Assembly (NCBI GenBank): GCA_963841215.1
Contig: CAWJBW010000001.1
Location: 5,332 to 69,331, forward strand
Origin: an uncultured Actinomycetes bacterium
GTDB taxonomy: Bacteria > Actinomycetota > Acidimicrobiia > IMCC26256 > PALSA-610
Direction: 5' to 3'
Length of the DNA: 64,000 bases
The notes beneath the pieces were generated by a model. It was not told where the DNA came from. It saw only the letters and a program-made list of their open reading frames with translations, and ran no database searches. Positions within the stretch are counted from its first letter, which is position 1. Each line of letters opens with the position of its first letter. The position numbers were made by a program, and so were the translations under genes. Shown here piece after piece: positions 32,151 to 54,341 of this stretch.

Positions 32151-33175
32151 ATGACCGATCCCGTCCGTCAGACGCTCGAGCTCGGCGCGCAGTGGCCGAC
32201 GATCGATCCGTTCCTCTTCTGCGCGCACCACGACGACGCCTATCCCGCCGGCAACGACGCAGATGGGACCGGCCGCCTCCCTCGAGGGCCGCGACCTCGG
32301 CATGGACTTCGCGGGCCGCGACGGCTGGCGGATGTACCACGGGCGCGAGGTGCCCGGGTTCCCGCCGCACCCGCACCGCGGCTTCGAGACCGTCACCTAC
32401 GTGCGCAAGGGCTTCATCGACCACGCCGACTCGCTGGGCGCGGCGGCCCGGTTCGGTCGTGGCGACGTGCAGTGGCTCACCGCCGGTGGCGGCATCCAGC
32501 ACTCGGAGATGTTCCCGCTCCTCGAACGCGAAGACCCGAACCCGCTCGAGCTGTTCCAGATCTGGTTGAACCTCCCGGCTTCCGACAAGCTCGTCGACGC
32601 GTACTTCACGATGTTCTGGGACACCGACCTCCCGCGCGTCGTCGTCGGTGACCGGGCGCGGAGGCGACGATCACGGTGATCGCAGGCGCGCTCGACGGCG
32701 CCACGCCGCCGGCCCCGCCGCCGAATTCGTGGGCGAGCCGCCCCGAGTCGGACGTCGCGATCTGGCACGTCGTGCTCGAACCCGGCGCGACATGGGTGAT
32801 GCCGGCGGCCGCGGGTCCCGAGACGATTCGCACGTTGTACGTGTTCGACGGCGAGACGTTGAGCATCGAAGGCCACGACGAGCGCATCCCGGTCGACACC
32901 GGTGTCGTCGTCGACGCGCACGCCGCCGATCCGGCTCTCGAGCACCGACGGTGTGGAGGTGCTCGTTCTCCAAGGTCGCCCGATCGCGGAGCCCGTCGCC
33001 CGTTACGGACCGTTCGTGATGAACACGCGCGCCCAGATCGAGCAGGCGTTCGACGACTATCGGAGGACCGCAGTTCGGCGGCTGGCCGTGGCCGTCCGAG
33101 GACCCGGTGCACGAACGGGAACGCGGCCGCTTCGCCCGCCACGCCGACGGCCGGGTCGAAGAGGTCGCCGGCTGA
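32151..33175 (+). CDS. Pirin family protein (several frameshifts)
   Basis: [67 protein letters not shown]. Confidence 0.9.
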
Positions 33176-33183
33176 GCGAACCG

Positions 33184-33219
33184 CAGCCGCTTCGGCAGCC
33201 GCGTCAACAGCCGCGTCAG
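33184..33219. repeat. 12-bp tandem repeat x3 ending in the stop codon of the minus-strand gene
   Basis: CAGCCGCTTCGG / CAGCCGCGTCAA / CAGCCGCGTCAG. Confidence 0.75.
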
Positions 33220-34008
33220 CGGGGCGGAACGGGCCGGCCCTGGAAGTCGCCGATCAGCGACACCTGCACGCGCTCGCCGGCATCGCTACGTGCGAACTCG
33301 CTCAGCTTGTCGCGGTAGTAGTCGGCCCGGAGATCACCTTCGGACGCCGCGTTGTAGGTCGGGTAAAAGGCCCGGCGAGGCTCGGACGAATGATTCGGTC
33401 CACTGCGGTGCGGCGTGCGCGAGTGGAACCACAAGGTCTGGCCCGCGCGCACCTCGACCGGCTGCCAGTCGAGCGCGGCGAAGATGTCGGGGCGGATGCA
33501 CCCGTCGTCGTCGGTCGGGAGCAGCTCGTGATGCGCGCCGGACACGACTTCGAGCCCGCCGTTGGCCGCCGATGCGTCGTCGATCGCGACCATGCAGGAG
33601 ACGTGCGTGTCGACGAAGCGGTAGGCGGGCGCGTCCTGGTGCGGCGCGTATCCCGCACCGCCCGGCAGCTTGTAGTTGATCTTCTCCTTGTAGAGCACCG
33701 CCGGTTCGCCGAGGAGCGCGCCGGCGGCGTCGAGCATCGAACCGCTGGTGAGAAAGGCCCGCAGGGGTGCGTGGAACGGGATGAGGTTCTCGCTCCGGCA
33801 CAGCTTCGGGCCGTCGTCGGTCATCTCGTAGTGGTGCATCCAGCCGTCGCCGTCGGTGGGCCAGGTCGCGATCTCGTCCACCCAGTGCCGCAACTCGTCG
33901 AGCCCGGCCGGATCGACCGTGTCGGCGAGCACCCAGCCCGTGCGCGTGAAGTGTTCGACGGCGCCGGCATCGATGGTTGCGAACTGCGGGAGCCGCGCTC
34001 GATGCCAC
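33216..34008 (-). CDS. PhyH family Fe(II)/2-oxoglutarate dioxygenase (PhnY-like)
   Basis: [19 protein letters not shown] (HxD), [18 protein letters not shown]...RR. The N-terminus [14 protein letters not shown] extends past the ORF-track start; probable GTG at 34008 with one indel. Confidence 0.85.
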
Positions 34009-34669: not shown

Positions 34670-35259
34670 TTACGCGGGTGACCAAGCGGGGTCGCGGCCG
34701 GCCATGCCGACGATGCGGTCGAGGAGTGGCGCGTCGGCGGGAACGTGCACGACCGGTCCGAACATGTCGCCGCGTTGGTCCGCAGTCTCGGGCGTGGAGA
34801 AGCCGGCGAGGAACTCGTGCACCGCGTCGAGGAGTTGCGGCTCGCACTCATAGGGTTGGGCACTCGCGCGGCGACGTCCCAGCCGTGGATCACGATCTCG
34901 TCGAGCGCGACGAGGCCGCCGATCTCGCCGGGGAGATCGACGCCACCCGCCTGGGTCATGCCCGTCCACGCAGCCGGGTCGCGCCACGCTTCGGCGAGCG
35001 CCGCCAGTTGTTCGGGGATGCGGACGTGCCAGTCGTCGCCGAGCCGCGCCGCATCGCCCGAAGGTCCCTGCGCGCTGTCGCCGCCGATCTCCTTGCGGGC
35101 TGCGGCGGTGAACGCGAGTGCGAGGCCGCCGATGTGGTCGATCAGGTCACCGAGGCTGTAGTCGGGACACGGTGTCGGCCCGGTGAGTGCATCGTCGGGA
35201 ACATTCGCGACGAGGGCCGAGAGGCGGCGAGCTGCTGGGGTCAGATCGACGGGTGTCAT
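34670..35259 (-). CDS. TIGR03086 family (MDMPI/DinB-like) metal-binding protein; frameshift near 34868
   Basis: PTPCPDYSLGDLIDH, AWRDPAAW, EIVIHGWDVA, FGPVVHVPADAPLLDRIVGMAGRDP. Confidence 0.88.
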
Positions 35260-35268
35260 GCCGGTTGA

Positions 35269-35295
35269 GACCGTCCGGTCGCGCGGAACTCATCG
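35269..35295 (-). promoter_or_regulatory. ECF sigma promoter, SigG/ECF56-like (CGATGA-N18-GTC)
   Basis: Minus strand CGATGA-gttccgcgcgaccggacg-GTC, 9 nt before the ATG; matches the recalled mycobacterial SigG consensus. Confidence 0.5.
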
Positions 35296-35389
35296 GCGGC
35301 CTTCGCGAACCGCGGCGCCGGCAGTCACGTACTGGTCCACAACTGCCGGTACCCCCCGCCGGCGGGCAGCACTACCAAAGGAAGCAGAG

Positions 35390-36391
35390 ATGAACAAACG
35401 AGCAATGATCCGGCGGGCGCCGATCGGTGTCGCCGGTGCGGTTGCCGCGCTGGCCATCGGCTTCGCGAGCCCCGCATCGGCCGCATCGACATCGGCGTCG
35501 GTCGCGAACGACACCCTTACCGTCTCCGGCAGTTCGGCGAGCGAGAGCATCGCGCTCCGGCTGTCGGTGAGCGATCCGAACCAGCTCGAGGTCGACTTCG
35601 GCGACGACGGCTCCGCTGACGGCACCTTCGATCGCAGCTCCTTCAGCACGATCGAGGTCTCGCTCCGCAGCGGCAACGACTCGTTCCGCGTCGACCAGAC
35701 GAACGGCACCTTCGCCGACGAGACGCTCGTCGTCGACGGCGGGAGCGGCAACGACACGATGGACGGCGGCGACGGCGCCGAAGTGTTCTACGGCCGCAGC
35801 GGTAACGATGCCGTCGACGGCAACCGCGGTGACGACTCCGCCTACCTCGGTTCCGGCAACGACAGCTTCCGCTGGGACCCGGGTGACGGCAGCGACCTCA
35901 TCGAGGGCGACAGCGGCACCGACACGCTCGACTTCAACGGTGCGGGCGCGCCGGAAGTGATGAGCCTGACGCCGAACGGCAGCCGGGCCCTGTTCCTGCG
36001 GGACGTCGCCAACATCCGCATGGACATGGACAACGTCGAGCGGCTCGACCTCACCGCCCTCGCCGGACCGGACACGATCACCATCGAAGACATGACGGGC
36101 ACCGACTTCCGTCAGGCGGACGTGGACCTCTCGGGTCCGGCCGGTGGTCCTGACGGCGAGGCGGACGTCGTCACGGTGAACGGTTCGAGGCGAGCCGACA
36201 ACATCGACGTCGAGGCCGACAGCGGCGACATCGACATCGAGGGCCTGCAAACCGAGACGCACATCTCGGGCAGCGAGCTCATCGACAACCTGCAGGTCAA
36301 CGCAGGTGACGGCAACGACGCCGTCGACGTCGAGGCCGACGTCAATGCGTTGATCACCGTGGCCATCGACCTGGGAGCGGGTCAGGTCTAG
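35390..36391 (+). CDS. Secreted calcium-binding protein with hemolysin-type (RTX) repeats
   Basis: Signal peptide ending ASPASA; repeats GGSGNDTMD, GGDGAE, GRSGNDAVD, GNRGDD, GSGNDSF, GDSGTDTL. Confidence 0.88.
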   Translation: MNKRAMIRRAPIGVAGAVAALAIGFASPASAASTSASVANDTLTVSGSSASESIALRLSVSDPNQLEVDFGDDGSADGTFDRSSFSTIEVSLRSGNDSFRVDQTNGTFADETLVVDGGSGNDTMDGGDGAEVFYGRSGNDAVDGNRGDDSAYLGSGNDSFRWDPGDGSDLIEGDSGTDTLDFNGAGAPEVMSLTPNGSRALFLRDVANIRMDMDNVERLDLTALAGPDTITIEDMTGTDFRQADVDLSGPAGGPDGEADVVTVNGSRRADNIDVEADSGDIDIEGLQTETHISGSELIDNLQVNAGDGNDAVDVEADVNALITVAIDLGAGQV

Positions 36392-36418
36392 CCGGCGGGC
36401 GACGCGCAATGCGTCGGG

Positions 36419-36450
36419 CAACGGGGCTCCCAGGGATGGGAGCCCCGTTG
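36419..36450 (+). terminator. Hairpin terminator
   Basis: CAACGGGGCTCCCA-GGGA-TGGGAGCCCCGTTG, perfect 14-bp stem. Confidence 0.75.
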
Positions 36451-36497
36451 TCGCGCGCGACGACGCACGGTGGTGCATGGTGTGGAGCGAAGGAGCC

Positions 36498-37144
36498 ATG
36501 ACGAACCAGTGGAGCACTCCTACGACTACCGCGAGAACCTCGAACGTGTGCGCCGGTCGTACGACGCGATGGTCGAGGTGCGCGACAGGAAGCCGGCCGA
36601 GGAGTGGAAGCAACGCGAGCGGGAGTCGTTCCTCGAACGAGTTCGGGCCGATGGAGGAACGCGCCTGCTCGAGGTGGGCGCCGGAACGGGCTTGCACGGC
36701 AAGTGGTTCGCTGATGCCGGACTCGAAGTGTTGTGCACCGACGCGTCGGCGGCGATGGTCGAGGCGTGCCGCGCCAAGGGACTCGACGCGTTGCAGATGG
36801 ACTTCCTCTCGCTCGATCCGGCCGGAACGTTCGACGCGGTGTTCGCGATGAACTGCCTGCTGCACGTTCCTCCTGACGACCTTCACGCGGCGCTGTGCGC
36901 GATCCACGATGTGCTCGTCCCCGGCGGCTGGTTCTTCCTCGGCCAGTACGGCGGTTTCGAGCGCGCGTCGACCTGGGCGGAAGACGTCTACGAACCGAAG
37001 CGCTTCTTCTCGTACCTGTCGGACGATGCGCTGCTCGGTGCCGTCGCGCGCGTCTTCGACGTCGTCGAGTTCCACACGGTCGACGTCGACGGCCTCGAAC
37101 CCGGTGCCCACTTCCAGGCGTTCACGCTCCGGCGTGCTTCATGA
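36498..37144 (+). CDS. Class I SAM-dependent methyltransferase
   Basis: LLEVGAGTG, FDAVFAMNCLLHVP, LVPGG; RBS AAGGAG before ATG 36498 (indel just after the start). Confidence 0.88.
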
Positions 37145-37149
37145 GTGCA

Positions 37150-38354
37150 TCAGTAGAAGTCCGGCATCCACGGCGGAGCGCCCGCGAACGCAGTCGCGAG
37201 CGCGTCCAGCGCGCCGGGATCGGACGTGCGCAAGAGCCCGGCAGTCGCGAGACGCCATGGCGACGCGTACCCCGTGTACAGGCTGGAGAAGGCACCGATC
37301 CCGAGCTCGACCTCACCGTCACCCCCGCGCGTGAGCCGGCCCTCGCCTCCTTCGACGACGAGTTGCCAGGGGCCGTCGTTCCAGTCGCACAGCGGATCGG
37401 CGACGCGCACCGACACGGAGACGTTCGTCCCGGTGCCGTAACCGCGCGCCGCGATCGCGCCGGGCGCGTCGATGAGACGCGCCATCCAGCGCCACCCGTC
37501 GTGTGCGCCGAGATCCTGCTCGGGCAGCGACAACAGCAGGGAGTGGTCCGGCGGTCCGGTGATCCGGCAAGTGGGTGCGATCGAAGACGACGTGCCGACC
37601 AGGCGCCAGAGCGCCTGCTCGACTGCAGGGTCGTCGGCCATGAGCTCGGCGACCTGCAGCGTCGCGAGGTTCTCGGTCGGCGGCCAGTGCAATCGGTACC
37701 GCACGTATCCGTCGACCGCACCATTCGTGCCATCGACGACGTAGATCTGTTGGTCGGGGCCGGCGTGGACGCGTTCCCACCAGTTCGCGCTGCGATCGAG
37801 GAAGCCCGGCGAGTTCCGCGCGAACGTGTGCGTAGCACGCTTCGATCGCGCTCCGATCGGACTCGGATGCGCGTCGAGTCGGCGTTCCGCGCCCGAGCGG
37901 CAGACGTTGCAGCTCGCGCGTCGGGAGCTCGAGCTTGCCCCACGTGCCGGCGAGCTCGAAGCCGATCCTGCGGTACAGCGCGTTCGTCGCCGGGTAGAGG
38001 CCTGACAGCACGAGCCCGCGCTCGCGCAACAGGGGATAGTGCACCGCGGCAGACAGTGGACCCGAAGCCACGGCCCCGGAACTCCGGTGCGACCGCGACC
38101 GGCGAATAGCCGCCCATCGGTACGGATCGACCGCCGAAGAACTGTCCGAAGTCGCGGATGCGTGCGCACGCAACCGGTTCGCCGTCGACCCACGCCGCGC
38201 GCACGCGGTCCGCCGGCGGTCCCTGCGCGAATCTGTCGTAGTCGGCGAGCGCCCAGCCGAAGGAACGACACAGCAGTGCCCACACGGCGCGCAGCTCGTC
38301 GTCGTCCCGGGGCGCGCGCACCTCCGGCGTGGCTGCTTGGACCGATCGCACCAT
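37150..38354 (-). CDS. Eis-like GNAT acetyltransferase with C-terminal SCP2 domain (frameshifted)
   Basis: QFFGGRSVPMGG, VAVAPEFRGRG, LYPATNALYRRIGFELAG, WMARLIDAPGAIAARGY, C-terminal PWMPDFY. Confidence 0.87.
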
Positions 38355-38433
38355 CCCCACGCTACGATTCCCGGTTCCCTTTCGGCGAGACATTCCCGGC
38401 CCGAGACGGTCTCGGCAACTGGAGACACGAACT

Positions 38434-41269
38434 TTGGAACAGCGCCCCATCGCCATCACGGGCATGCACCGCACCGGCACATCGATGGTCACCCGAGCGT
38501 TGCACGACTCCGGACTGCACCTGCTCGGTGCCGGCGCCGACGCGTTCATCGACGCGGCCGAGGACAATCCGGAGGGGTTCTGGGAGAACGCCGCGATCGT
38601 CGCCTGCAACGACGACCTGCTCGAAGCGACCGGCGGCGCGTGGGACAACCCGCCGTCGCTACCGCCGCAAGGCGCCGACGACCCGCGAGTCGCTCACCTC
38701 GTCGACGCCGCCCACGAGGCGCTCGCCGGATTGCGCGAGCTCGGCCAGAAGGAGTTGGGAACGTGGGGCTTCAAGGATCCCCGGACCTCGCTCACGGCAC
38801 CGTTCTGGATGGACCTCGAGCCCGACCTGCAGTTCATGATCTGCGTTCGCCATCCGATCGAGGTCGCGCTCTCGCTCAAGCGCCGCAACCAGAACTCGTA
38901 CTCCCTCGGCTTGTCGCTCTGGGAGAAGTACTACGCGACCCTCGTCGAGACGGTGCCGCGTGAGCGCCGCTTGGTGACGCACTACGACGCGTTCTTCGCC
39001 GACCCAGCGGGCGAGCTCGCCCGCCTGTGCGACTTCGCCGGGCTGGACCCCGCCGAGCCGCGAGTTCGTGCCGATCTGCGGCACCACGACATCGACGTCG
39101 GTCTCGTCGACGCCGGCGCGAGCCCGGCACTCGTCGCGTTGTACGCGGAGCTGTGTCGAGAAGCGGATGTCGCGGTGCCCGCCGAGTCACCACGCGACGA
39201 AGGGCGAGTGCGCCGGCTCGTGCTCGACGGCGCGGTCGCCCGCCAGCACGCCGCGCAGCGGCAGCAGGCGATCGAACGTCTCGAGGAACGCCTCCGCGAG
39301 AACCAGGCCGAGCACAAGGAACTGTGGGAGAAGCGCAGCCAGGAGAGCCAGCGCCGCGAAGAGGAGGCACGGCAGCGTCAAGCCGACACCGAAGCGCTCC
39401 AACGGCGGCGTCAAGCCGACACCGAAGCGCTCCAGCGGAGGCTCGTCCGGGACCTGGCGGAGATCAACCAGCGGACGCGGCGCACCGACCTTCGGGTCGA
39501 ACGCGCGGTGCAAGCCGTGACGCTGCGAAGCGCGCGTCGCGCCCTCCGGCGGTGGGCCCGCCGCTCGGCGCGTCTCGGCGAGGCGAACATCGTGAAGCCG
39601 GGCAAGCGCATCGCCAAGCGCGGTGCGCGGGTTGCCGTCCCGCGCGCCAAGGTCGTCGTCGTCCCGCGCGCACGTTCAGTCGCGAAGCGACTGCCGGACC
39701 CCGCCCAAGACGTCCTGCGCCGCGGCCGTACCGCAGCGCGCGCGGCGTACGTCGCGTCGACGCGCGAACGGCGCGTCACGATCGGCGCCCAAGGCTTCGG
39801 GCGAGAAAGGTTCCGCGCCGGGCACGCGCGCCGCGCGCGGCACGACACCGAAGAACTGGCAGAGGAACTTCGAGAAGCTGGTCGGCGCGACGGTTCCCGA
39901 ACGCGAGCCGTGGCTCATCTGCATGGCCGGGACACCGGGCTCGGCCCGACGCGTTGGTACGGAGGCCGGCAGCGCATTTCCGGCGGCAGCTGCGGGTGCG
40001 TCGACGCTGCCCGCGCTGGTGAACCGGTGGCGGGGCTCGGACCGTTGGGCGGGCGCCGAGGTGTCGCTCATCGCGCAACTGGAGGCGAGACGCTACGAGG
40101 GATTCCGGCGCCTCGTCGTGCCGGTACAGGCCGGACCGTGGTTCGCGCGGCGCGTGGCGCTGCGAGGGCATGTGACCAGTCGCTACGCGGTGCTCGCCGA
40201 CAACGCCGCCGGCACCGTCTTCGACCTCGGTGCGAGGGCCGCGACGCCGGCTCGTTCCCTCCTCGGTGAGGTGGCCGAGTGCGCGGGCGCGTCAGGTGAC
40301 CTCCCTGCGGTGCTCGACTGGACCGACGCCGGCGTCGCCGCCGAGCTGCCCGGAGTCACGACCTTCCGGGCGCCCGCCGGTGAGCGGCTCCCGTATCTCG
40401 ACTCGAGTGTGGCCGTCGTCGTCGTCGACGAGATGCACGACGGCCGCGAGGCGGCTCGCGTCGCGTCGCAGCGCGTGATCACCGTCGGCGACACGAAGCG
40501 ATCGCCGGGGGCGTCGACGATCGTGTCGGTCGACACGCGCGCCGGCGGCAACGGCGCGACACCGCACGCGCACGCGCATGCGGCAACCGTTGTCGTCTGC
40601 TCGGCCGATCCGAACGCCGACGCGGCCTGGCGGGCGGCGCTGGCCGACGCTTCGCTCGACGCCGGTGCCGAGCTGCGTTTCGGTGATCTCGATGCGGCGG
40701 CAGTCGCCGACTGCCTGCCGGCCGCCGACGTGCTGGTGCTCGTCGAGCCCTACGTCGTGCCGTTGCCCGGTGCCATCGAGCTGGCGGCCACGCTCGCGCT
40801 CGCAGATCCGACCGCCGCGGTCGCGGGCAAGACGCTGCGGGCCGACGGGCTGCTCGAATCCGCCGGCGGCACGGTGTTCCACGACCGTTCGGTCGCCTTG
40901 ATCGCGAATCGCTCACCGGAAGTGAGCGCGCCCTGGCACGAGTACGTTCGGCCGGTCTGCTGGGCACCGGGTTTGGTCGCGGCCGCGAGCAGCCTCTGGG
41001 AGAGCGTTGATCGGCCCGCGGACTCCGGCGGCCGCGCGTTCGTGCGCGAATGGTGCGCAGCCGTGTGGGCGCAGGGCTCGCGCGTGGTGTACCGGCCCAC
41101 CGTCATGGCGACGCGGGTCGGCGGCGACCGCGACGAACCGGTCACCCCGCTCGAGCGGTCGGCGTGGCAGCGGGTCCTCGATCTCCGACCGGCGCGTCCT
41201 GCGGATCTCGGTGACGGCGCCTGGCGCTACCTGCTCGCCCACGACGACGTCGATGCGTGCCGGGGTTGA
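38434..41269 (+). CDS. Sulfotransferase-like domain + coiled coil + degenerate GT2-like domain (frameshift near 39780)
   Basis: 5'-PSB-type motif ITGMHRTGTS, NPEGFWE, WGFKDPR, CVRHPIEVALSLKRR; E/Q/R-rich helix at about 39230-39500; C-terminal AVAGKTLRADGLLESAGGTVFHD...YVRPV, GSRVVYRP. Confidence 0.75.
39376..39441. repeat. In-frame 33-bp duplication (RQADTEALQRR x2)
   Basis: Units at 39376 and 39409 inside the coiled-coil segment. Confidence 0.9.
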
Positions 41270-41421
41270 GCCGAGTGGCGTTCCGCGGTCGCGCGACTGT
41301 GCCCGTGCGGGCATGCCCGTTTAACATCGTGCGGATCGCCGATCTCCGCGCAGGGATCAAGTCGCCGCGTTCGCGCCTTCGGCGCGCGGAGCACGGCTGC
41401 CAAGGAAGGCCTTCGAGCGTG

Positions 41422-42070
41422 ATGGAATACGGACATCAGTTGCAGAACGACCGCTGGATCGTGGAGGCGGTGTTCCCCGGCCTGCGAGATGGCTACTTCA
41501 TCGAGGCCGGCGCGTGCGGTGGCGCGAAGATGAGCGCGAGCTACGTCCTCGAGCACCATTTGGGCTGGAACGGGATCTGCGTCGAGCCCGTGGACAAGTA
41601 CTTCGAAACGCTCCAACGCAATCGCAGCTGTGCGAAGGACCACCGCTGCCTGGCCGGCCGCACGGGCGACTTCGTCGAGTTCCTCTCCTACGACGAGGAT
41701 CTGGCCCGCAGCGGCATCCAGTCGCTCAACAAGAACGATCTCTGGGCCGCGAAGCACGACGCGGACAGCCGCACGACGACGAAGGAGACCGTCACGTTGC
41801 ACGATCTCCTCGAGCAGCATGGCGCACCGCAGACGATCGAGTTTCTCTGCCTCGACGTCGAGGGCGCCGAGCGCACGATCCTCGACGCGTTCGACTTCGA
41901 CGGCGAACACCGCATCCTCGCGATCAGCATCGAAGGCAAGTCCTGCGACGACCTCCTCGAAGCGAAGGGCTACCGACAGGTGCTCAACCCGTACGCACCG
42001 CAGGAAGATCGACCACTACTTCTTGTGTGAGACCCTGGCCGAACAACGCCCCGACCTCCTGAACGCATGA
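41422..42070 (+). CDS. FkbM family methyltransferase (C-terminal frameshift near 42000)
   Basis: DGYFIEAGACGG, LGWNGICVEP, TLHDLL, IEFLCLDVEGAE. Confidence 0.88.
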
Positions 42071-44498
42071 ACTCGATCACCCATGTAGCCGGCAGGAGTC
42101 GCGTCGCGTCGCGTGCGCGCGGCACTGGCCATGGTGCTCGTCGTGGCCGGCCTTGCGCTCACGAGCGCGCCGGCAGCCGCGCACTCGCCGCACGACGCGA
42201 TCATCCACGTCGTCACGTCGCCGGACTTCGCCTCCGACAACACGGTCTTCGTGATCTCGGAGAACCGCATCATGCGGTCCACGAACGGCGGCGAGAGCTG
42301 GCAGGAGATCTTGCGGGGCATCAGCCCGAACCCGCACCTGCGCTTCGCGATCGCACCGAGCGACAAGAACGTCATGTACCTCAGCACGCGCGGTGCCGGA
42401 GTGCTGAAGTCCACCGATCAGGGACTGTCGTGGGCACGCACGAGCGCCACCTCCGAGAACACATCGCTCTCGGCGATCGCGGTGTCGCCCCAGTCGCCCG
42501 ACACCGTGTTCGCGGCGGGAGCTCGTGAGCGGCCTGTTCCGGACGACCGACGGCGGCGAGCAGTGGACCAGGGTCCGCGGTCCGTTCGGCCGGGTCACCG
42601 CGTTGACGATGGCGAACGACGGCGCTCGCGTGATCGTCGGCGACGAGCAGGGGCGGATCTGGTACTCGGACGACGGTGGCGCCCAATGGACGGAGTCGAC
42701 GGGCACCCCGGGTGCCTCTGCCGGCACCGCCGATCCGATCACCGCGCTTCATCGCGACCGACGGATGCCGGCGACTCGGGCGACCAAGACCAAGTGTTCG
42801 CCGGCACCGACGCGGCCACGATGTTGCTGCGTTCGGACGACGGCGGCGCGTCCTTCACGACCGTCGGCGACGGCCTGCCGGCCGGGCCCGTCAACTCGAT
42901 CAAGGTCGTCCCCGGGGCCGACGACGAGGTCTGGGTGTCGATGTGGCACGGCGGCGCCTACCGCTCCACCGACGGCGGCGACACCTTCGAGCGTTCCGGC
43001 AACGGTCTGAAAACCAACCACCAGGCCGCCGATGTCGGCGTCGCGGACTACCGACACCTCGCGATCGCGACTGGCGGCAGAGACGACGATGACGGCGACG
43101 GCGCGACCGTCATGCTTCATGGGCGGCTTCGGCGGCTTGTTCCGCTCCGACGACGACGGTGCGAACTGGCGTGAGCTGCAGACCCAGTCCGAGTACCTCA
43201 CCGGCCTCGACGTCTCGCCCGACTACGCCGACGACGGCACCGTGGCCGTGATGGCGTACATCAAGGGCGCCTACATGTCCGAGGACGGCGGCGAGACGTT
43301 CGACTTCAGTTCCGACGGGCTCGACGGACGAGGAGCTCGGCGACGGGAACGAGTTCGCACCGGTCCGGCGGTTGCACAACGTCGTCTTCTCGCCGGACTA
43401 TGCGCAAGACGGAACGATCTTCTCCGCGGCCTGGCCCACGTTCCTCAAATCGACCGATCGTGGCCGTTCGTGGCAGCAGATCCAGGTGTCACCGCGGCCG
43501 CCCGACACGCCGCTGCGGCAGTTCGTCATCGCGGTCTCGCCCGGCTACGCGGAGGACGGCACGATCTTCCTCGGGTCGCGCCAGGGCGACATCTACAGGT
43601 CCACCGCGCGCGGCGACGAGGGCACATGGGAGAAGATCTCCAACGTCCCTGTCGGCGACCCTCGCCGACGAGCCCGTGCAGCTCGAGGTCGACCCGATCC
43701 TCGGCATCCGGTCGCTGCTCCTCCACCCGCAGTACCCCGAGCGTCGCGAGCTGTACGTGAGCACCGGCAAAGGCGTTTTCCACAGCGTCGACGACGGGAT
43801 CAGCTGGACACCGACCGGGCCGACCGAGGTCGGGATGCTCTCGATGTCGCCGGAGTACGCCACGGACGGAACCGTGTACGCCGGCACCGGACACGGCCTC
43901 TCCGTGACGCGCGACTCCGGCGTCACGCTGGTCGCTCGTCGACGGCGCGCCCTTCGCCGCAACGAGCGACATCGAGGCGGTCGCGGTCGCACCCGACGGA
44001 TCGGTGTTCGTGAGCGTCCTCGGTGAGGGCCTCTACCGCTCCACCGACGGTGGCCGAACCTTCGACGAAACCGGTACCGGCCTCATCGCCGAGAACAAGC
44101 TGATCGCAGACTTCACCAACCCCACCTCCCAGCCGATCCAGTTCTCGCCGACGTTCGCCGAGGACCAGACGATGTTCGCGATCGCACAACAGGACATCGT
44201 GAAGTCGACCGACGCCGGCGCAACGTGGGAGACCGTCGAGATCCCGAGCGGGCAGGACTTCCTCGAGAGTCTCCCGTCCGGCCGCGGGCGACGCGGACGG
44301 ACGGATCGATCCAGCAGCGCGCCGTACATCCTCGTTCTCGCCGGCGTGGTCGGCATCATTCTCCTCGGCGCGTACCTCTGGTCGAGGCGGGGTCGCAATC
44401 AGGGACTCGGCGAGAGCGGTCCGCACGACGAAGGCGCCGATCCGGACGACGACCCCGCCCCACCGGCGCTCGAGACCACATCCGGCGCACGCGAATGA
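42067..44498 (+). CDS. Secreted, C-terminally anchored BNR/Asp-box beta-propeller protein (multiple frameshifts)
   Basis: Signal peptide ending AAAHSPHD; more than ten SxDxGxTW-type repeats (STNGGESW, STDQGLSW, SDDGGAQW, STDGGDTF, STDRGRSW, STDAGATW); SPDYAxDGT repeats; TM helix YILVLAGVVGIILLGAYLW followed by RR; ATGA overlaps at both ends. Confidence 0.8.
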
Positions 44499-47400
44499 CC
44501 CGCCGGCGCGTGCTCGTCGTGCACACGCGGATGCCGGCGTTCGATCGCGACCGCGGCTCTCAAGAGATCGACAACTCGATCCGGTTCCTGCTCGACGCCG
44601 GATGGCAGGTCACCTTCCTCGCGCGCGAAGGCCAAGGCGTCGCCGAGGAGCGTCACGCGCAGCGGCTCCGCAATCTGGGTGTTGCGACCTACGCCGGGTT
44701 CGACTGGGCGGAGCGGCTGCTGCGGTCGAACAGCTTCGACCTCGCACTCGTCGCGTTCTGGGAGCTGGGGGAGCGTGCTCATCCCGCTCATCCGCAAGCA
44801 CTCACCGGACACGCGCGTCGTCATCAACTCGATCGACGTGCACTTCCTGCGCCTGGCACGGCGTGCGCTCGTGCAGGGCACGCAGCTCGATGCCACGTAC
44901 GGCGATGCGACCGCACGCGAGCTCAACACCTACAGCAGCGCCGACGCGGTGATCGCCGTCTCCGAACGCGAGTGCTCGCTGCTCGGCGACTTCCTCGGCG
45001 AGGACCGCGTCTTCGCGATTCCGCTGTCGGAGCAGGTGCCAGCGATCGACCGTCCCGCTGGCCGACCGGCGGGGAATGCTGTTCGTCGCCAACTTCCGGC
45101 ACGAGCCGAACAAGGAAGCCATCGAGTACCTGTGCGCGGAGGTGCTGCCGCTCGTCGACCGCGTCCTGCTCGAACAGCACCCGGTGCGCGTGATCGGCAA
45201 CCGGCTCGCCGAAGCCGAGCCTCGACATCGACGAACGCACGCCGGGCGTGCAGCTCGTCGGCTGGGTGCCCGACGATCACGCCCTACCTCGAACAGTCGC
45301 GCATCTCGGTCGTGCCGCTGCTGCACGGCGCGGGGGTGAAGGGCAAGGTGCTGCAGTCGATGATGGCGTACACGCCGGTCGTGACCACACCGGTCGGCGC
45401 CGAAGGGCTCGACCTCGTGAACGGGGTGCACGCGCTCGTCGGGACCGACGCCGCCGATCTCGCGGCCGGCATCACCCGACTTCTCGTGGACGACGAGCTG
45501 TGGACCCGCGTCGCGGACGCCGGCGCCGACCACATGGACGCCCGGCACAGCCTCGAGCTCGTTCGGACCCGTTTTCTCGACGTCGTTGCGCAGGTGATGC
45601 AGCGCCCGGCCCGCACCCATGGCGGAAACCGGGGCGGCATGACGGTCGCCGCGGGCGACGGCACGCGCCGACGCCATCCGCCGCCGCGTCCAGATGATCG
45701 CCGCGCCGGGTGCGGTCGTCCTCGTCGCGACGGCAGGGGAGTCGATCGAGCTCCGGGGCCAGCGTGAGCGTCGCAGTTCGTCGAACCGCCCGACGGACCG
45801 GCCGGGATCGCCCGGCTCGAGGCGCAGCGTGAGCAGGGCGCCGCGTACCTCGTGCTCCCGAAGCCCGCGTTCGCGTGGCGTCACACGCTCCCCGAGCTCC
45901 ACCACCACCTCGAGGAGACCACCCGGCGCGTGCACCAGGACGAGCACCTGATCGTCTACGACCTGCGCCTCGCGCGATGCGGACCCGATCCTCGGCGCAG
46001 CCGACACGCGGCCCCGGCGCGTGCACGTGCTCGGGACCTACGCACCCGACCGCACCGGGCCCGCGGGCGCCGTCGTCGCCGAGCTCGCCAACAGCCGCCA
46101 CGACGTGCACCAGACGTGGCGCTCCGCCACCGAGCCGCCGCCCGCCCCCGACACATCCGACGCCGACGCACCGACGCCGACTTCCCCGATCCGGACTACC
46201 TCGTCTACGTGCGCGACGACGCCATCCTGCCGAGCCGGTTCCTCGATGATCTCGTCGCCACCCAGGCCCACCTCGACGTCGATCGCGTGCAGCCGACACA
46301 CATCAGCGGACCTGCGAGCGGACCGCCGATCATCGAACGCCACAAGGGTGTCATCGCCCGCGAGGTCGCGGCGCCCGACGCCGCTGCCCGTGCTGTCGGT
46401 GCGCGCCGGGGCCGACCCCGATGGCCCGGTGGCGCTTCTCGACCGCGTGAACGTGGGACTTCGCGCGCCGGTGCATGCGACCGAAGATGCCATCGACGCC
46501 TTTTCGCACGTGTCGCACGGTGTGGGTGCGCGGCACCGACGGTTCGATCGTGCGCTACGACCGCCCCGAGCCGGAGGGCGTTCCGCGCATCAGTGTCGTG
46601 ATGGCGACGTACGAGCGCGGCGACCTGTTCCGCGAGTCGCTCCTCGCATTCGTCGAAGCAGACACTGAACCGATCCGAGTACGAAGTCGTGCTCGTCGAC
46701 GACGGGTCCAGCGACAGCTCGCTCGACGCGATGCTGGACGAGTTCGCCGAGCAGCTCCAGGTCACCGGTGTCCGCATCGAGCACGCGGGTCGCAGCGCGG
46801 CGAAGAACATGGCGATCCTTCTCGCCCGGGCGCCCGTGGTACTGATCTTCGACGACGACGACCGGCCCGCGCCCGACTACCTCGAGCGACACGTCCGCGC
46901 GCACGACGCGCGCCCCGAGCCCGGGGTCGCGATCCTCGGCCACACCGACTGGGCGCCCGAGGTCGAACCGACCGAGGTCATGCACTTCGTCACCGACGTC
47001 GACCGGTTGATGTTCGCCTACGAGCGTTTGGGCCACGGCCAAGAGCTCGACTGGCGCGGCTTCTGGGAAGGCCGGATCTCCTGCAAGCGCGCGCACCTCG
47101 TCCGCCACGCATTGCACGATCAGCGCATCAACTACTCGATCGACGTCGAAATGGGTTGGCGACTCGCGCCGCACGGCCTGCGCGTCATCTACGACACGAC
47201 CGCGGTGAGTGTGATGGCGCGTCCGCTCGACACGGAGACGTTCTGCACACGCATCCAGGCCAAGGGTCGCGCGCACGCAGCCATTGCCGCGCTGCATCCC
47301 GGAACCGACATCGCCCGCCAATTCAAGATCGACGCTGCCCTCGAGCTCTGGGAGAAGCAACGATCGCGCCAAGGCGAGCTGCGCCGCCGGGTCGCGTCGC

Positions 47401-48414
47401 TCGAGGCTCGCGTCGGCCGAGACGAGCGTGAAGCGGCAGACGCGCGGGACCAGAAGGTGATCTCCGAGCTGCACGTCGCGTACCGGCAGCTGTTCAAGCT
47501 CCTGCACGCCAAGGGTGTCGCGGAAGCCACCGGCCGCCTCGACCGAGAGCGTGTGGTGGCGGAGCCCGCGCGCCGCGGTCCCGCCGGCGGGACCCTGCCA
47601 TCACACCGAAGCGGCCGCGGCCACCGACCGACGGTGCCACGCGTCGATCGCTCGCCGCCGGAGCTCGCGTACGACGGGTCGCCGGCCGGCGCCTCGGCCA
47701 CGCCGGCACTCAGCATCAGCATCCCGGTGTGGAGCCGCAGCCCCGAGCTCGCCGCGATGGCGGTGCGGACGATCGACCGGATCTGGGAGGTTGCGCGCGT
47801 CCCGACCGAGGTCGTCGTCGTCGACAACGGTTCGCCGCTACGAGACCCGGCTGGCAGCCAAGGTGTACCGCTATCCGGAGAACACCGGCGTGTCGGCCGG
47901 TTGGAACACCGGCATCCGCTTGTCGGGCGCCGATGCGTTCGTCGTGCTCAACAGCGACTGCATGGTCGAACCCGGTTGGGACGAAGCGCTCTACGAGGCG
48001 GCCACAGACGGCCGCCGCATCGCGTTCCCGTACACCGACCACGACGACGGCAACGGCTTCACGATGCCCGACCAGGCCGGCACCGCGGGCTGGTGCTTCA
48101 TGATGACGCGCGCGGTCCATGACGAGATCGGCGACTTCGACGAGTGGTTCAGCCCGGCCTTCGGCGAGGACACGGACTACTGGCACCGGGCCTGGCAGCT
48201 CGGCATCGAGCTCACACCGGTGCCCGCGGCACGGGTCGTGCACGCTCGCCGCACCACCGGCGGCAAGGACTCGCAGAGCGAGTGGCTGCTCCTGTCGCAC
48301 CGGTACAAGTACGGCTGGAAGCACGACGTCGAGCCGTTACGGGCACCGCCGTACTACAACCGGGAGATCGTCGAGTACCACGGTTCGTTCGAGGTCCGCG
48401 GAGATGAACGATGA
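44495..48414 (+). CDS. Multidomain glycosyltransferase (GT4 + GT2-like + GT2 + GT2), probably one gene split by many indels
   Basis: GT4: MPAFDRDRGS, LFVANFRHEPN, VPLLHGAGVKGK...PVVTTPVGAEG. GT2: ISVVMATYER, VVLVDDGSSD, AAKN, IFDDDD. Second GT2: ISIPVW, VVVVDNGS, GWNTG, LNSD, FDEWF, GEDTD. Could be two or three genes. Confidence 0.75.
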
Positions 48415-48991
48415 CGGACGAGAAACGCCCGGATCGGCGCCCGGGTGTTCTGCATCGGATTGAACAAGACCGCGACGTCGTCGTTCCACGAGGCGATGAC
48501 GATCCTCGGGTTCGAGAGCCTGCACCACGGCGGGCCGGAGGTCGAACAGAAGTTGACTGCCGCGATCGAGGAGAAGGTGCCGCTCCTGAAGTACCTCGAT
48601 CCGCGCTACGACGCCTTTTCCGACATCGGACAGCTCAGCCGGCGGTTCATGATGCTCTACACCCAGTACCCCGGCAGCCGGTTCGTCCTCACCGTTCGTC
48701 CGCGTCGAACAGTGGCTCGACAGTCGGCGGCGGCATGTCGAGAACAACATCCGTCTCAAAGCGGCGGGCAGCTACGACGGCCGCTTCATCGTCGTCGAGG
48801 AGGAGAAGTGGCGACGCGAGTGGTCCGACCACCTCGACAAGGTGCATGCGTTCTTCGAGACGCGCGACGGCCTGCTCGAGATCGATTTCACCGACGGTCC
48901 GGGGTGGGGTCCGCTGTGTGCGTTCTTGCAGCTCCCGCAACCGGACGTGCAGTTCCCGTGGGCGAATCGCGACAAGCGCTCGCGCCAGTAG
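48411..48991 (+). CDS. Sulfotransferase family protein (frameshifted)
   Basis: VFCIGLNKTATSS (5'-PSB motif), YDAFSD, YPGSRFVLTVR, GWGPLCAFL, FPWAN; ATGA overlap with the GT gene. Confidence 0.82.
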
Positions 48992-49001
48992 CGTCGGGTT
49001 C

Positions 49002-49592
49002 GTGAGCGCGACTGCACCCCGATCGCGCCGGCGGCGGGTCTTCGGTCTCGGACTGAACAAGACCGGCACCTCCTCGCTGCACGAGGCGCTCACGATCCTC
49101 GGCTACGAGAGCCTCCACTGGGGCGGCCCCGAGATCCGGCGCAAGGTGGAAGCCGCGCTCGAGGCGGGCGTGCCGCTGCTGTCGAACCTCGATCCGCGCT
49201 ACGACGCCTTCTCCGACATCTTGGCGCTCAGCACCAACTACGCGCGCCTCGACGTGCAGTACCCGGGCAGTGGATTCGTCCTGACCGTCCGACCGGTCGA
49301 CGCTTGGATCGACAGTCGGAGGCGGCACGTCGAGCGGAACATCCGTTTGCACGAGCGAGGGGAGTACACGGGCACGTTCCTCGTCGTCGACGAACCTGCG
49401 TGGCGCCGCGAGTGGGCGGAACACGTCCCCGCCGTGCGCGAGTACTTCGCGGGCCGCGACGACCTCCTCGAGCTCGATGTCACGGCCGATCCGGGGTGGG
49501 AATCGCTGTGCAGCCTCGTACGCGTCGACGTGCCCGATGTGCCGTTCCCGTGGGAGAACCGCGATCACGTGCCCGCGCCGGATCGCTGCTGA
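49002..49592 (+). CDS. Sulfotransferase family protein, tandem paralogue
   Basis: VFGLGLNKTGTSS, YDAFSD, YPGSGFVLTVR, GWESLC, FPWEN. Confidence 0.85.
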   Translation: MSATAPRSRRRRVFGLGLNKTGTSSLHEALTILGYESLHWGGPEIRRKVEAALEAGVPLLSNLDPRYDAFSDILALSTNYARLDVQYPGSGFVLTVRPVDAWIDSRRRHVERNIRLHERGEYTGTFLVVDEPAWRREWAEHVPAVREYFAGRDDLLELDVTADPGWESLCSLVRVDVPDVPFPWENRDHVPAPDRC

Positions 49593-52825: not shown

Positions 52826-54297
52826 GTGCTGCACGACGCCGACCAGCCGGCCCGTCCGCTGCGCGTCGCGATCATCGGTGCCGGGATGGCCGGCATCTTG
52901 AGCGGCGTGAAGCTGCACGAGGCCGGGATCCACGACTTCACGATCTACGAGAAGGGCGACGCGCCCGGCGGAACGTGGCGCGAGAACACCTACCCGGGTC
53001 TGGCGTGCGACGTGCCGTCGCACCTGTACAGCTACTCCTTCGCACCGAACCCGGAGTGGAGCCACCGCTTCTCGCCCGGCGAGGAGATCCAGCAGTACTT
53101 CCTCGGCGTCGCCTCGGAGTTCGGCCTCGACGCGCGGACGCGCTACGGCGATGCGGTCACGCGATTGCCGCTTCGTCGACGGCCGTTGGCACATCGAGAC
53201 GGCCGAGGGCCACCACGACGACGTCGATGTCGTCATCGCCGCGACCGGAGTGCTCCACCATCCCCGATATCCGGACATCCCCGGCCTCGAGTCCTTCGAG
53301 GGCTCGATGTTCCACAGCGCGCGGTGGGACCACGACGCGAAGGTCGACGGCACGCGTGTCGGCATCATCGGGAACGGGTCCACCGGTGTGCAGATCACGA
53401 CTGCGCTCGTCGATCGGGTCGAGAAGCTCTCGCTGTTCCAGCGGACCGCGCAGTGGATCATGCCGCAGGAGAACCCGGCCTACACGGACGAACAGAAGGT
53501 GTCGTACCGCAACGATCCGCGCCAGCTCCAGGAGATGCACGCGCACTTGAGCGAGATGTTCGGCATGTTCGCGATGGCGGTCGTCGACTCGAACTCACCG
53601 CAGATCAAGGTGGTCGAGGACATGTGCCTCGCGAACCTCGAGGAGAGCGTCCGCGACCCCGAGCTGCGGGAACGTCTCCGGCCCGATTACCGCGCCGCGT
53701 GCAAGCGACTCGTCGTGTCGCCCGGCTTCTACGACGCGATCCAACGCTCGAACGCCGAGCTCGTGACCGAGGGGATCGAGCGCATCGAACCGGCCGGCGT
53801 CCGGACGCGAGACGGTCGCCTGCACGAGCTCGACGTCCTCGTGCTCGCCACCGGCTTCCAAGTCTCCGCGTTCACGCGCCCGATGAACGTGGTCGGGACG
53901 CGGCGGCCGCTCGCTCGACGACGAGTGGTCGGAACGACCGCTCGCGTACCTCTCGATCTCGGTTCCGGGCTTCCCGAACTTCTTCATGTTGAACGGTCCG
54001 AACGGACCGGTCGGCAACTTCTCGCTCATCGAGGTCGCCGAGTTGCAGTTCGACTACATCATGCAGCTCATCGAGCAACTGCGCGCCGGGTGTCGCGAGA
54101 TCGAGCCGAAACGCGAGGCGATGGAAGCGTTCGAAGCCGAGCGGGTGGCGGCGACGAAGGGCACGATCTGGGCCACGGGCTGCCGGAGCTGGTACCTCGA
54201 CGACCGCGGTGTCCCCGCGTCGTGGCCGTTCACGTTCGCCCGGTTCCGGGCCGAGATGGCGGCGCCGGATCCAACCGCCTACGCCACCGCTCGGTAG
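52826..54297 (+). CDS. Flavin-containing monooxygenase, BVMO family (frameshifts near 53160 and 53900)
   Basis: GAGMAG, GGTWRENTYPGLACDVPS, FEGSMFHSARWD, GNGSTG, ATGF, PNFFMLNGP, GCRSWY. Confidence 0.9.
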
Positions 54298-54341
54298 CAC
54301 TGTCTGTCGCGTGGTTCCCGATTCCTGAGTACGGTCCCGGG

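Follow-up and report, generated by a model that had tools for sequence, protein, structure and literature searches.

A conserved sulfotransferase and giant glycosyltransferase gene cluster of uncultured Acidimicrobiia, with a predicted sulfated and methylated glycan as its product

Six co-oriented genes on a contig of an uncultured Actinomycetes bacterium (Acidimicrobiia; IMCC26256; PALSA-610) form a real gene cluster with three sulfotransferases and a giant multi-module glycosyltransferase (GT), and a core of three of these genes is conserved across uncultured Acidimicrobiia. The stretch analysed, called the window here, comprises 64,000 nucleotides of assembly GCA_963841215.1, contig CAWJBW010000001.1 (G000:C1:5332-69331, where G000 is the source assembly, C stands for contig, and other G and L numbers are genomes and loci of relatives); the assembly as a whole spans 3.88 Mb in 11 contigs, has about 69% G+C, and is 71% complete and 0.14% contaminated. 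We consider it probable that the locus is a glycan assembly and sulfation module of functional type, widespread in uncultured Acidimicrobiia, which makes a sulfated, methylated glycan by an O-antigen-like route of the ABC-transporter type. The location at the cell surface and the nature of the product, be it a polymer, a glycoprotein or something else, are what we infer from the sequence.

A sequence-only reading of the same DNA had picked out the cluster as a candidate locus for such a glycan. All six genes lie at the positions it gave them, the ATGA overlaps it named are confirmed (Table 1), and the proposed loops for binding 3'-phosphoadenosine-5'-phosphosulfate (PAPS) were located as MHRTGTS (nt 38464), NKTATSS (48463) and NKTGTSS (49056). 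On the three points where it saw its own risk of failure, the domains score as sulfotransferases, the gene set is conserved elsewhere, and the genome has a route to PAPS.

Pfam searches of the region covered 49 stop-to-stop ORFs in six frames, with 101 further ORFs of the window scanned separately, and they supported each proposed domain: Sulfotransfer_3, FkbM, a BNR/sortilin propeller, GT4 with two GT2 modules, and two copies of Sulfotransfer_4. The first gene of the cluster (gene 1) matches Sulfotransfer_3 (ST3; PF13469) with 49.3 bits against a cut-off of 27 (E 9.5e-13) over positions 1-213 of the 216 in the profile, its orthologs scoring 49.7 and 63.9 bits. For Sulfotransfer_4 (ST4; PF17784) the intact gene #2 reaches 86.9 bits against 22.8 (E 2.2e-24), and gene #1 matches as two halves in two frames, with 38.5 bits (1.5e-09, profile 1-101) and 49.0 bits (8.9e-13, profile 121-213). 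The methyltransferase scores with Methyltransf_21 (PF05050; 46.4 bits versus 22.7, E 6.4e-12) and with NCBIfam TIGR01444 (40.9 versus 37.7), its start and C-terminus being inferred from a 62%-identical homolog in L087/L061. The propeller is matched by Sortilin-Vps10/BNR pieces in three frames (47 bits versus 33), and the giant GT by Glyco_trans_1_4 (41.1 bits versus 27, 2.7e-10) and twice by Glycos_transf_2 (63.3 and 38.4 bits versus 23.3; 3.5e-17 and 1.6e-09).

Each of the three sulfotransferase domains scores as one and retains both a PAPS loop and a 3'-PB-like motif. In gene 1 of the window these are GMHRTGTS and VRHPIEVALSLKRR, which correspond to the 5'-phosphosulfate-binding loop and the 3'-phosphate-binding motif as generally defined. 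The loop, GMHR[ST]GTSM, is present in all 27 homologs whose N-terminus is included, and VR[HN]P.EVA[LM]SL[KR]RR is kept in 30 of 30, bar single conservative changes.

Table 1. Features of the cluster by position in the window, with the frame changes in each gene counted against intact homologs
Feature	Position	Strand	Content	Frame changes
Gene 1	38434..41269	+	N-terminal Sulfotransfer_3 (to about 39200), charged helix and Arg-rich linker (about 39200-39800), HLE domain, degenerate GT-A-like domain	1
Tandem 33-nt (11-aa) duplication in the gene 1 helix	39369..39434	+	two copies from repeat search, 97% identical, spacing 33	
FkbM-family methyltransferase	41422..42070	+	start ATG 41422; stop overlaps next start (ATGA at 42067)	1
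Secreted, C-terminally anchored BNR/sortilin-type beta-propeller	42067..44498	+	Pfam pieces in three frames; stop overlaps next start (ATGA at 44495)	about 5-7
Giant multi-module glycosyltransferase	44495..48414	+	GT4, HLE and GT-A-like region, GT2, GT2; stop overlaps next start (ATGA at 48411)	about 5-7
Sulfotransfer_4 gene #1	48411..48991	+	two Pfam halves in two frames	2
Sulfotransfer_4 gene #2	49002..49592	+	intact 196-aa ORF with Pfam match	0

The question of how far this gene set extends beyond the window was addressed in two ways. With the ST3 piece of gene 1 as query, 41 of the 63 genomes of the family gave matches at E <= 1e-10 (a tally which includes G000 and the unpublished G055), and close gene 1 orthologs with 59-74% identity were found in seven of the 62 other family genomes (G063, G067, G037, G061, G069, G034 and G066); across all pieces of the cluster, amino-acid identity to orthologs is 43-74%. 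At least 158 metagenome protein clusters of 575-1831 aa match gene 1, the named ones being entered as 'sulfotransferase [Acidimicrobiia/Acidimicrobiales bacterium]'. A scan of one genome per GTDB species gave 40 loci, 27 of them from Actinomycetota under titles that include Acidimicrobiia bacterium, Acidimicrobiales bacterium, Candidatus Aldehydirespiratoraceae and uncultured Actinomycetes. The giant GT begins 0-30 nt after gene 1 in all 21 of these loci that extend past gene 1 (the other six end within 141 nt of the gene 1 match), in most of them with an ATGA overlap of stop and start, and a Sulfotransfer_4 follows the GT in 15 of the 15 that are long enough, the remaining six stopping inside or just after the GT. 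The GT and the Sulfotransfer_4 share one ORF in seven of the 15, and in G067 as well; in the window the link between them is a stop/start overlap and not a fusion. Gene 1, the giant GT and Sulfotransfer_4 make up the conserved core. The FkbM gene and the anchored propeller (41.4-44.5 kb), which the sequence-only reading had counted in, do not belong to it: in every relative the giant GT comes straight after gene 1, and the pair that parts them here is an insertion specific to this genome.

Around the core the loci vary. An ABC-2 pair (ABC2_membrane and ABC_tran, Wzm/Wzt orthologs) lies within 10 kb downstream in eight of the 15 loci. An additional Sulfotransfer_3 stands between GT and ST4 in L072, L083, L085, L090 and L081; L065 has a Sulfotransfer_1, a radical-SAM/SPASM protein and Methyltransf_11; and the methyltransferase is of a different family from locus to locus (Methyltransf_24 in L064, L067 and L083, Methyltransf_25 in L069, FkbM in L087). 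An AT3 and SGNH acyltransferase occurs in L074, a sulfatase in L067, BNR propellers in L067 and L072, and FG-GAP propellers in L069 and L073. The sulfatase of L067 (18167-20014) is placed beside the BNR propeller, and the radical-SAM/SPASM protein of L065 (17691-18761) is possibly of the sulfatase-maturase type; the two suggest turnover or remodelling of a sulfated product.

The source genome is unusually rich in sulfotransferases for its 3.9 Mb. Matches to PF13469 at 19 places and to PF17784 at six can be grouped into some 13-16 genes on contigs C1, C2, C3, C5 and C11. Given that three of these sulfotransferases fall within 11 kb, and that the gene order recurs in other genomes, their clustering is more than chance. 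An intact Sulfotransfer_4 of 192 bits stands elsewhere, at C3:761383-761967.

Gene 1 orthologs each consist of one ORF, which codes for 973-1046 aa. The structure that AlphaFold2 predicts for the G061 ortholog from an alignment of 30 homologs (mean pLDDT 76.5) has a sulfotransferase domain at 22-260, a continuous helix of 109 residues at 269-377, Arg-rich helices of lower confidence to about 548, an alpha/beta domain at 576-790 and a GT-A-like domain at 800-1027. Foldseek relates the sulfotransferase domain of this ortholog to 3rnl, TPST1/2, the CurM and OLS sulfotransferase domains and Stf1 (E 2e-06 to 7e-05), and the GT-A-like domain to the GT-A folds of ppGalNAc-T. The latter assignment comes from the fold search, sequence profiles having failed: neither the C-terminal part of gene 1 nor the unassigned region of the giant GT has a significant match in profile searches of PDB sequences, and Pfam at E <= 1 is also blank. 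A distant homolog in G005 has a canonical GT2 at the position of the degenerate domain. The spacer is the part that changes in length: helix and linker vary from 212 to 345 aa across the 30 homologs, while the flanking domains stay fixed, the sulfotransferase at 247 aa in 25 of 30 (range 231-247) and the C-terminal part at 445 ± 8 aa. The tandem duplication of 33 nt in the helix keeps perfect register at 11 residues and is a plausible way for spacer length to change between lineages. A 19-mer scan gave no conserved hydrophobic segment in gene 1.

Orthologs of the giant GT are likewise single ORFs, of 1266-1501 aa. The G061 protein, one ORF of 1469 aa, is composed of GT4 (27-350), an unassigned region (360-690), GT2 (697-944), a second GT2 (about 1042-1250) and Sulfotransfer_4 (1284-1460); the window copy retains catalytic-type motifs DDGS, DDD and NSD, and no hydrophobic 19-mer was found in the giant GT. 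Its unassigned region and the middle of gene 1 have in common a domain of about 100 aa (consensus HLEA.R..GARY.VLP....W; hhalign probability 97%, E 4.9e-11), which we call HLE. This domain has no relative in Pfam, PDB sequences or named Atlas proteins, a Protein Atlas search returning only 'hypothetical protein' clusters of Actinomycetota with scores of 0.90-0.92.

The two Sulfotransfer_4 genes of the window are tandem paralogs in a repeat search, a duplication particular to this genome, and gene #2 is 59-67% identical to the ST4 of relatives. Among solved sequences its closest are SgdX2 (8y9p, 5.8e-06) and the schistosome sulfotransferases. SgdX2 and the oxamniquine-activating schistosome enzymes (4mua, 5tiv) belong to the same Pfam family, with an N-terminal loop, G-x-x-(K/R)-T-G-T-(S/A/N)-S, that aligns; the similarity is weak (E 6e-06 to 4e-03). 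Their substrates are small molecules, whereas cluster-type ST4 is fused to a glycosyltransferase of 1270 aa in seven of 15 loci, and this fusion points to a glycan substrate.

The anchored propeller has a signal-peptide-like N-terminus and a hydrophobic helix at its C-terminus, and intact homologs of it in a single frame are found in G001 and G014. The G001 homolog scores 172.6 bits with NF045728 (F510_1955 family glycosylhydrolase), below the cut-off of 175; the window copy is too fragmented to score as a whole.

No Wzx, Wzy, Wzm/Wzt or CysDNC gene had been noticed in the window, and the 49 and 101 ORFs scanned indeed gave zero matches, so the supply of PAPS and the export of a product had been assigned to unlinked partners. 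For PAPS these exist: an APS kinase at C11:220655-221081, CysN at C3:275916-277147 and CysD at C3:277301-277980, with a gene of the PAPS-reductase family adjoining the latter two. The expectation of an unlinked exporter held in part, in that a Wzm/Wzt pair with Wzt_C lies beside GT4 genes on C4 (about 658-660 kb); the cluster-linked ABC-2 transporter of the relatives is without a close ortholog in the assembly.

Reading the window copy of the cluster calls for some care. The gene models of the sequence-only reading need correction: gene 1, the FkbM gene, the propeller, the giant GT and ST4 gene #1 each need frame changes, 14-18 in the 11.2 kb when counted against intact homologs, and the phase of GC3 shifts repeatedly across 42-49 kb. 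Gene 1 is a single gene whose frame shifts once, somewhere in 39717-39770 (tblastn of intact orthologs aligns to frame 1 over 38434-39717 and to frame 2 over 39770-41266); the FkbM gene requires a change near 42005 to reach its stop at 42070; and ST4 gene #1 has changes at 48438 and near 48703. Intact homologs elsewhere run in a single frame over stretches for which the window needs many.

Independent contigs from four public runs were aligned at 90% identity or more, the pieces at 99% or above being 24 of 98, 9 of 63, 7 of 40 and 4 of 48. Among the matches listed, and as drawn from 12 of the 48 indel rows, these contigs lack single bases at 44309, 45220, 45269, 45841, 45966 (two runs), 46368/46372 and 48438 (two runs). 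The base at 48438, absent from the contigs of both runs that cover it, is what puts the ATG at 48411 and the NKTATSS motif in different frames; an indel at 41364 (three runs) is intergenic, since the FkbM start is at 41422. Housekeeping genes elsewhere in the assembly are split as well, with CysN in three frame pieces and CysD, APS kinase, fumarase, malate/lactate dehydrogenase, acyl-CoA dehydrogenase and pirin also affected, and the catalytic and PAPS motifs survive in the frame-broken genes of the cluster. Because the independent contigs lack single bases, housekeeping genes are split, orthologs are intact and motifs survive, we read most of the breaks as errors of a long-read-type assembly and not as gene decay. 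The completeness of 71% for 11 contigs fits this reading, as do the flanking genes, which themselves carry about six frame changes over about 11.5 kb aligned to G002. Indel errors are assembly-wide, and gene calls from this assembly need ortholog-guided reading; the single-base differences make the earlier advice to polish it apt, and a frame-shattered region of a long-read metagenome-assembled genome can still be read reliably via intact orthologs. Ordinary genes of the window at 218-1631, 5004-5933, 32155-33315 and 52850-54300 (acyl-CoA dehydrogenase, P450, pirin and an FMO-like gene) are frame-split, and so is the CysN of C3 mentioned above. Homopolymer compression was considered as the cause and rejected, the G/C run-length spectrum of the assembly being equal to that of the relatives' loci. 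Removing in silico the extra bases of 12 of the 48 indel rows did not give a single long ORF; high GC keeps all frames open.

From these parts a scheme for the module can be proposed. The multi-module transferase (GT4, GT-A-like and two GT2), soluble or peripheral, would act on the cytoplasmic side of the membrane and there assemble a glycan of repeat units on a lipid carrier. The Sulfotransfer_4 enzymes would sulfate the chain on that same side with PAPS from CysDN and CysC, sulfation being placed in the cytoplasm because PAPS is made there, and a methyltransferase (FkbM in this genome) would O-methylate the glycan. As neither the GT nor gene 1 has a conserved hydrophobic segment, the glycan would be made on the cytoplasmic side, with export as a later step. 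An ABC-transporter-dependent route is suggested by the ABC-2 genes linked to the cluster, and the exporter would be of the Wzm/Wzt type, its genes lying next to the cluster in about half of the relatives and being unlinked or missing in this assembly. For the anchored BNR propeller, specific to the version in this genome, the scheme foresees action on the product outside the membrane. In gene 1 a second sulfotransferase and a GT-like docking end would stand at opposite ends of a long helical stretch, as in coiled-coil chain terminators, so that the fused Sulfotransfer_4 might decorate repeat units and the ST3 of gene 1 might modify chains of a given length. For O antigens the rule is that the terminating enzyme stands at the distal end of a coiled-coil ruler, with GT modules possible at the other end, as in Klebsiella pneumoniae O7 ORF6 (PMC11231755). 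The layout of gene 1 matches this rule, hence the proposal that its ST3 acts on chains which have reached a given length; this is the weakest step of the scheme, and a doubtful one. It can be taken further, to gene 1 as a sulfate-adding chain terminator and molecular ruler that caps only long-enough chains and thereby controls how long an anionic polymer of the wall or surface, multiply sulfated and free of phosphate, becomes, replacing or standing beside teichoic-acid-like polymers, with HLE as the docking element between terminator and polymerase. We think that extended version unlikely, if conceivable.

A number of observations weigh against the scheme as a whole or against its parts. The cluster sits in a variable island: the segment from 38.4 to 52.8 kb, comprising the cluster and genes for a PQQ propeller and an S8 peptidase, is missing at the syntenic site of the same-genus genome G002, whose contig C2 (L104/L105) is syntenic for the window flanks at 28.4-30.9, 37.2-38.4 and 52.85-63.4 kb, in rearranged form. 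No close gene 1 ortholog was found in G002 (94% complete) or G001 (60%); at the island borders there are no flanking direct or inverted repeats beyond matches of chance size, and there is no tRNA in the window. Frame changes are denser in the cluster, at about 1.3-1.6 per kb, than in the flanks, at about 0.5 per kb (some six per 11.5 kb aligned to G002), a roughly threefold difference. The window ORFs scanned include no initiating phosphoglycosyl transferase, flippase or transporter; the relatives' Wzm has no match in the assembly at 1e-6 and no close ortholog, and the Wzt on C4 shares no more than 47-49% identity, over 90 aa, with the cluster Wzt of the relatives. A Wzt_C cap-binding domain was not detected at E 1e-5 in the Wzt beside Acidimicrobiia clusters, which weakens a cap-recognition model. 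In gene 1, the GT-A-like domain is without DXD, having V-E-P-x with a single acidic residue in 29 of 30 homologs, and may be non-catalytic; the helix, with 46-53% E/R/K/Q/D and a best a/d hydrophobic occupancy of 0.42-0.55, may be a single alpha-helix and no coiled coil. Finally, the closest solved relatives of the ST4 enzymes act on small molecules.

Three of these points, namely the excess of frame changes (14-18 in 11.2 kb), the absence of the cluster with its PQQ and S8 genes from G002 together with the lack of a close gene 1 ortholog in G001 or G002, and the lack of a close ortholog of the relatives' Wzm, are what would be seen if the cluster here were a decaying, non-functional island in which the breaks are real mutations and the transporter has been lost. 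We keep this explanation, as a quite improbable one, because of the threefold density. Against it, independent contigs at 90-99% identity are without single bases exactly at frame changes, the housekeeping genes of the assembly are equally split, the catalytic and PAPS motifs are intact, the identity of 43-74% to orthologs holds across all pieces, and ST4 gene #2 is unbroken.

The product might instead be a sulfated, methylated small glycoconjugate, such as a glycolipid or an oligosaccharide natural product, and not a polymer of the wall or surface. The small-molecule substrates of SgdX2 and the schistosome enzymes would suit this, as would the fold of the ST3 domain, which resembles the CurM/OLS and Stf1 sulfotransferases, and the absence of a polymerase, flippase or initiating transferase from the window; an actinomycete oligosaccharide antibiotic has been described as being sulfated on the assembled chain (PMC13291958). 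Four GT-type modules in one protein of 1266-1501 aa beside a helix-spacer protein speak against it, as do the ABC-2 Wzm/Wzt-type transporters in eight of 15 loci and the AT3 and SGNH acyltransferase in one, and none of the loci scanned showed PKS, NRPS or aglycone genes; we regard a small glycoconjugate as distinctly unlikely.

That the cluster glycosylates and sulfates a protein, for example the adjacent secreted propeller, as in S-layer or flagellin glycosylation, is in our view very unlikely. Several genomes do have a secreted propeller beside the cluster (BNR in the window, L055/G067, L067 and L072; FG-GAP in L069, L073 and L060), and in Calditrichota related giant proteins of ST3, GT and TPR modules stand directly behind flagellar genes; yet most loci lack a propeller, its family is not constant among those that have one, the loci scanned have no oligosaccharyltransferase-like gene, and the match of a propeller homolog to a putative glycosyl-hydrolase family, below its cut-off, fits the processing of a polymer. 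Least probable of all is an intracellular methylated polysaccharide, resembling the polymethylated polysaccharides which mycobacteria keep inside the cell but sulfated and in no need of an exporter, since the soluble biosynthetic proteins, the window without an exporter, and the methyltransferase and putative hydrolase of the cluster have to be set against ABC-2 transporters beside the cluster in eight of 15 relatives and a hydrolase-like propeller with signal peptide and membrane anchor.

Several neighbouring and more distant loci deserve mention in their own right. Just upstream of the cluster, on the plus strand at 35162-37141, the window encodes an RTX calcium-binding repeat protein and a Methyltransf_25/11 methyltransferase, and a frame-split Eis-like GNAT gene on the minus strand (37153-38361) lies between this pair and the cluster. 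In five of seven close relatives (L055-L059, e.g., L057 4833-5717) a gene for an SBP_bac_11 lipoprotein, not present in the window, is directly upstream of gene 1; the SBP_bac_11 family includes binders of sulfate and molybdate, and the lipoprotein has no NCBIfam match. Two plus-strand ORFs of L057 (14232-16851) were taken up as candidate conserved proteins and rejected, since they are the Wzm/Wzt genes read in antisense.

A more distant version of the cluster, L011 (G005:C26:5000-24000), encodes an ST3 fused to a canonical GT2 (950 aa), a GT4+WbsX protein (1131 aa) and a WbsX+ST3+methyltransferase protein (879 aa), with further GT2 proteins and an ABC_membrane/ABC_tran exporter. The giant proteins of Calditrichota, of 1403 aa (L096, 9556-13764) and 1707 aa (L098, 9971-15091), combine Sulfotransfer_3, GT2, GT4 and TPR repeats directly downstream of flgK and flagellin-like genes, an arrangement that hints at sulfated flagellin glycans. 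In Chloroflexota (L093, 7672-13921; L095, 7675-16113) there are, in this order, Wzm, a Wzt with Wzt_C, Sulfotransfer_3, NKWYS, GT2 and a WecA-type transferase, and in L095 the Sulfotransfer_3 is fused to WbsX and NKWYS. The ST3 genes of these two loci are relatives at 31-35% identity and stand directly behind Wzm and Wzt; by gene order this is a canonical ABC-dependent cluster with a sulfotransferase in the usual terminator position, the layout expected of a cap-dependent system.

On the same genome as the window cluster, a second and larger polysaccharide locus at C11:447-479 kb (447000-479000; L040, L041) has about six ST3 genes, GT4s, Wzy_C, Wzx and a Bac_transf initiating transferase, along with an APH-like kinase fused or adjacent to a GT4, a hexapeptide transferase, a DegT aminotransferase, a deacetylase, DUF1996, an epimerase/dehydratase and a GFO oxidoreductase.

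The three-gene core recurs in uncultured Acidimicrobiia of soil, permafrost and other sources, at 27 species-level loci and in the 158 or more protein clusters, and a sulfated, methylated glycan of this type is not yet known from the actinobacterial phylum. If the product is a sulfated polymer of the envelope, it would add a new class to the anionic polymers of wall or matrix, in a very abundant uncultured soil lineage, with a bearing on sulfur cycling and soil aggregation, and the fused GT-sulfotransferase enzymes could be used for the microbial production of sulfated glycans. If gene 1 is a terminator and ruler, it would provide the first sulfate-based control of chain length, and Actinomycetota would have their first pathway for a sulfated glycan of the cell envelope; its terminator-like layout makes the idea of sulfate as a chain-length cap directly testable. 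In our literature search nothing was found that links Acidimicrobiia to sulfotransferases in this sense, and no sulfate terminator is described in the titles and opening lines of abstracts among the matches listed.

Compared with known systems, the cluster stands closest in layout to the coiled-coil terminators and multi-module polymerases of O antigens, such as Escherichia coli O9a WbdD-WbdA, K. pneumoniae O7 ORF6 and O12 WbbB (PMC11231755; PMC3482155). Like O7 ORF6, gene 1 begins with a chain-modifying enzyme and ends in GT-type modules, with a long helical spacer between them, and in the G061 model it is the helix at 269-377 that separates the modifying enzyme from the GT end; like ABC-dependent O-antigen systems in general, the cluster has a partner polymerase with several GT modules per polypeptide, soluble cytoplasmic enzymes, and Wzm/Wzt beside it in eight of 15 relatives. 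The distal enzyme of O-antigen terminators is a methyltransferase, kinase or Kdo transferase, whereas in gene 1 it is a PAPS-type sulfotransferase. The GT-like end of gene 1 lacks DXD, no Wzm/Wzt with Wzt_C is present in the window and no Wzt_C in the linked pairs of the eight loci, and the host is an actinobacterium of the Gram-positive type; gene 1 is not known to share sequence homology with WbdD. The enzyme families are known and the pathway type is known from Gram-negative O antigens; the Acidimicrobiia cluster itself is conserved and uncharacterised, with a predicted product.

A second comparison is with bacterial clusters for sulfated polysaccharides. A pathway of this kind has been characterised in cyanobacteria, for synechan (xss) of Synechocystis (PMC8205485). 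Shared with the window are a bacterial glycan cluster of glycosyltransferases and sulfotransferases and the dependence on PAPS. The xss pathway is reportedly Wzx/Wzy-dependent; the window cluster differs in having no Wzx, Wzy or initiating transferase and in its fused multi-module enzymes, and the closer analogue is the C11 locus, where all three are found. A recent account describes sulfated polysaccharides as nearly confined to cyanobacteria among bacteria and, in actinomycetes, as a prediction awaiting proof; it presents wps-1 of Actinoplanes missouriensis as a predicted cluster for a sulfated exopolysaccharide (EPS) in an actinomycete (PMC13390465). The window cluster and wps-1 are both loci of Actinomycetota in which a methyltransferase and a glycoside hydrolase accompany two sulfotransferases, each from its own family, and for both the product is only predicted. 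Unlike the window cluster, wps-1 is Wzx/Wzy/Wzz-dependent, consists of single-domain enzymes with a kinase-like protein, and contains neither a helix-spacer sulfotransferase nor a giant GT. The C11 locus, with Wzx, Wzy, a kinase-like APH and several ST3 genes, is closer to wps-1 than the window cluster is, and by its gene content resembles the Wzx/Wzy type of predicted sulfated EPS cluster.

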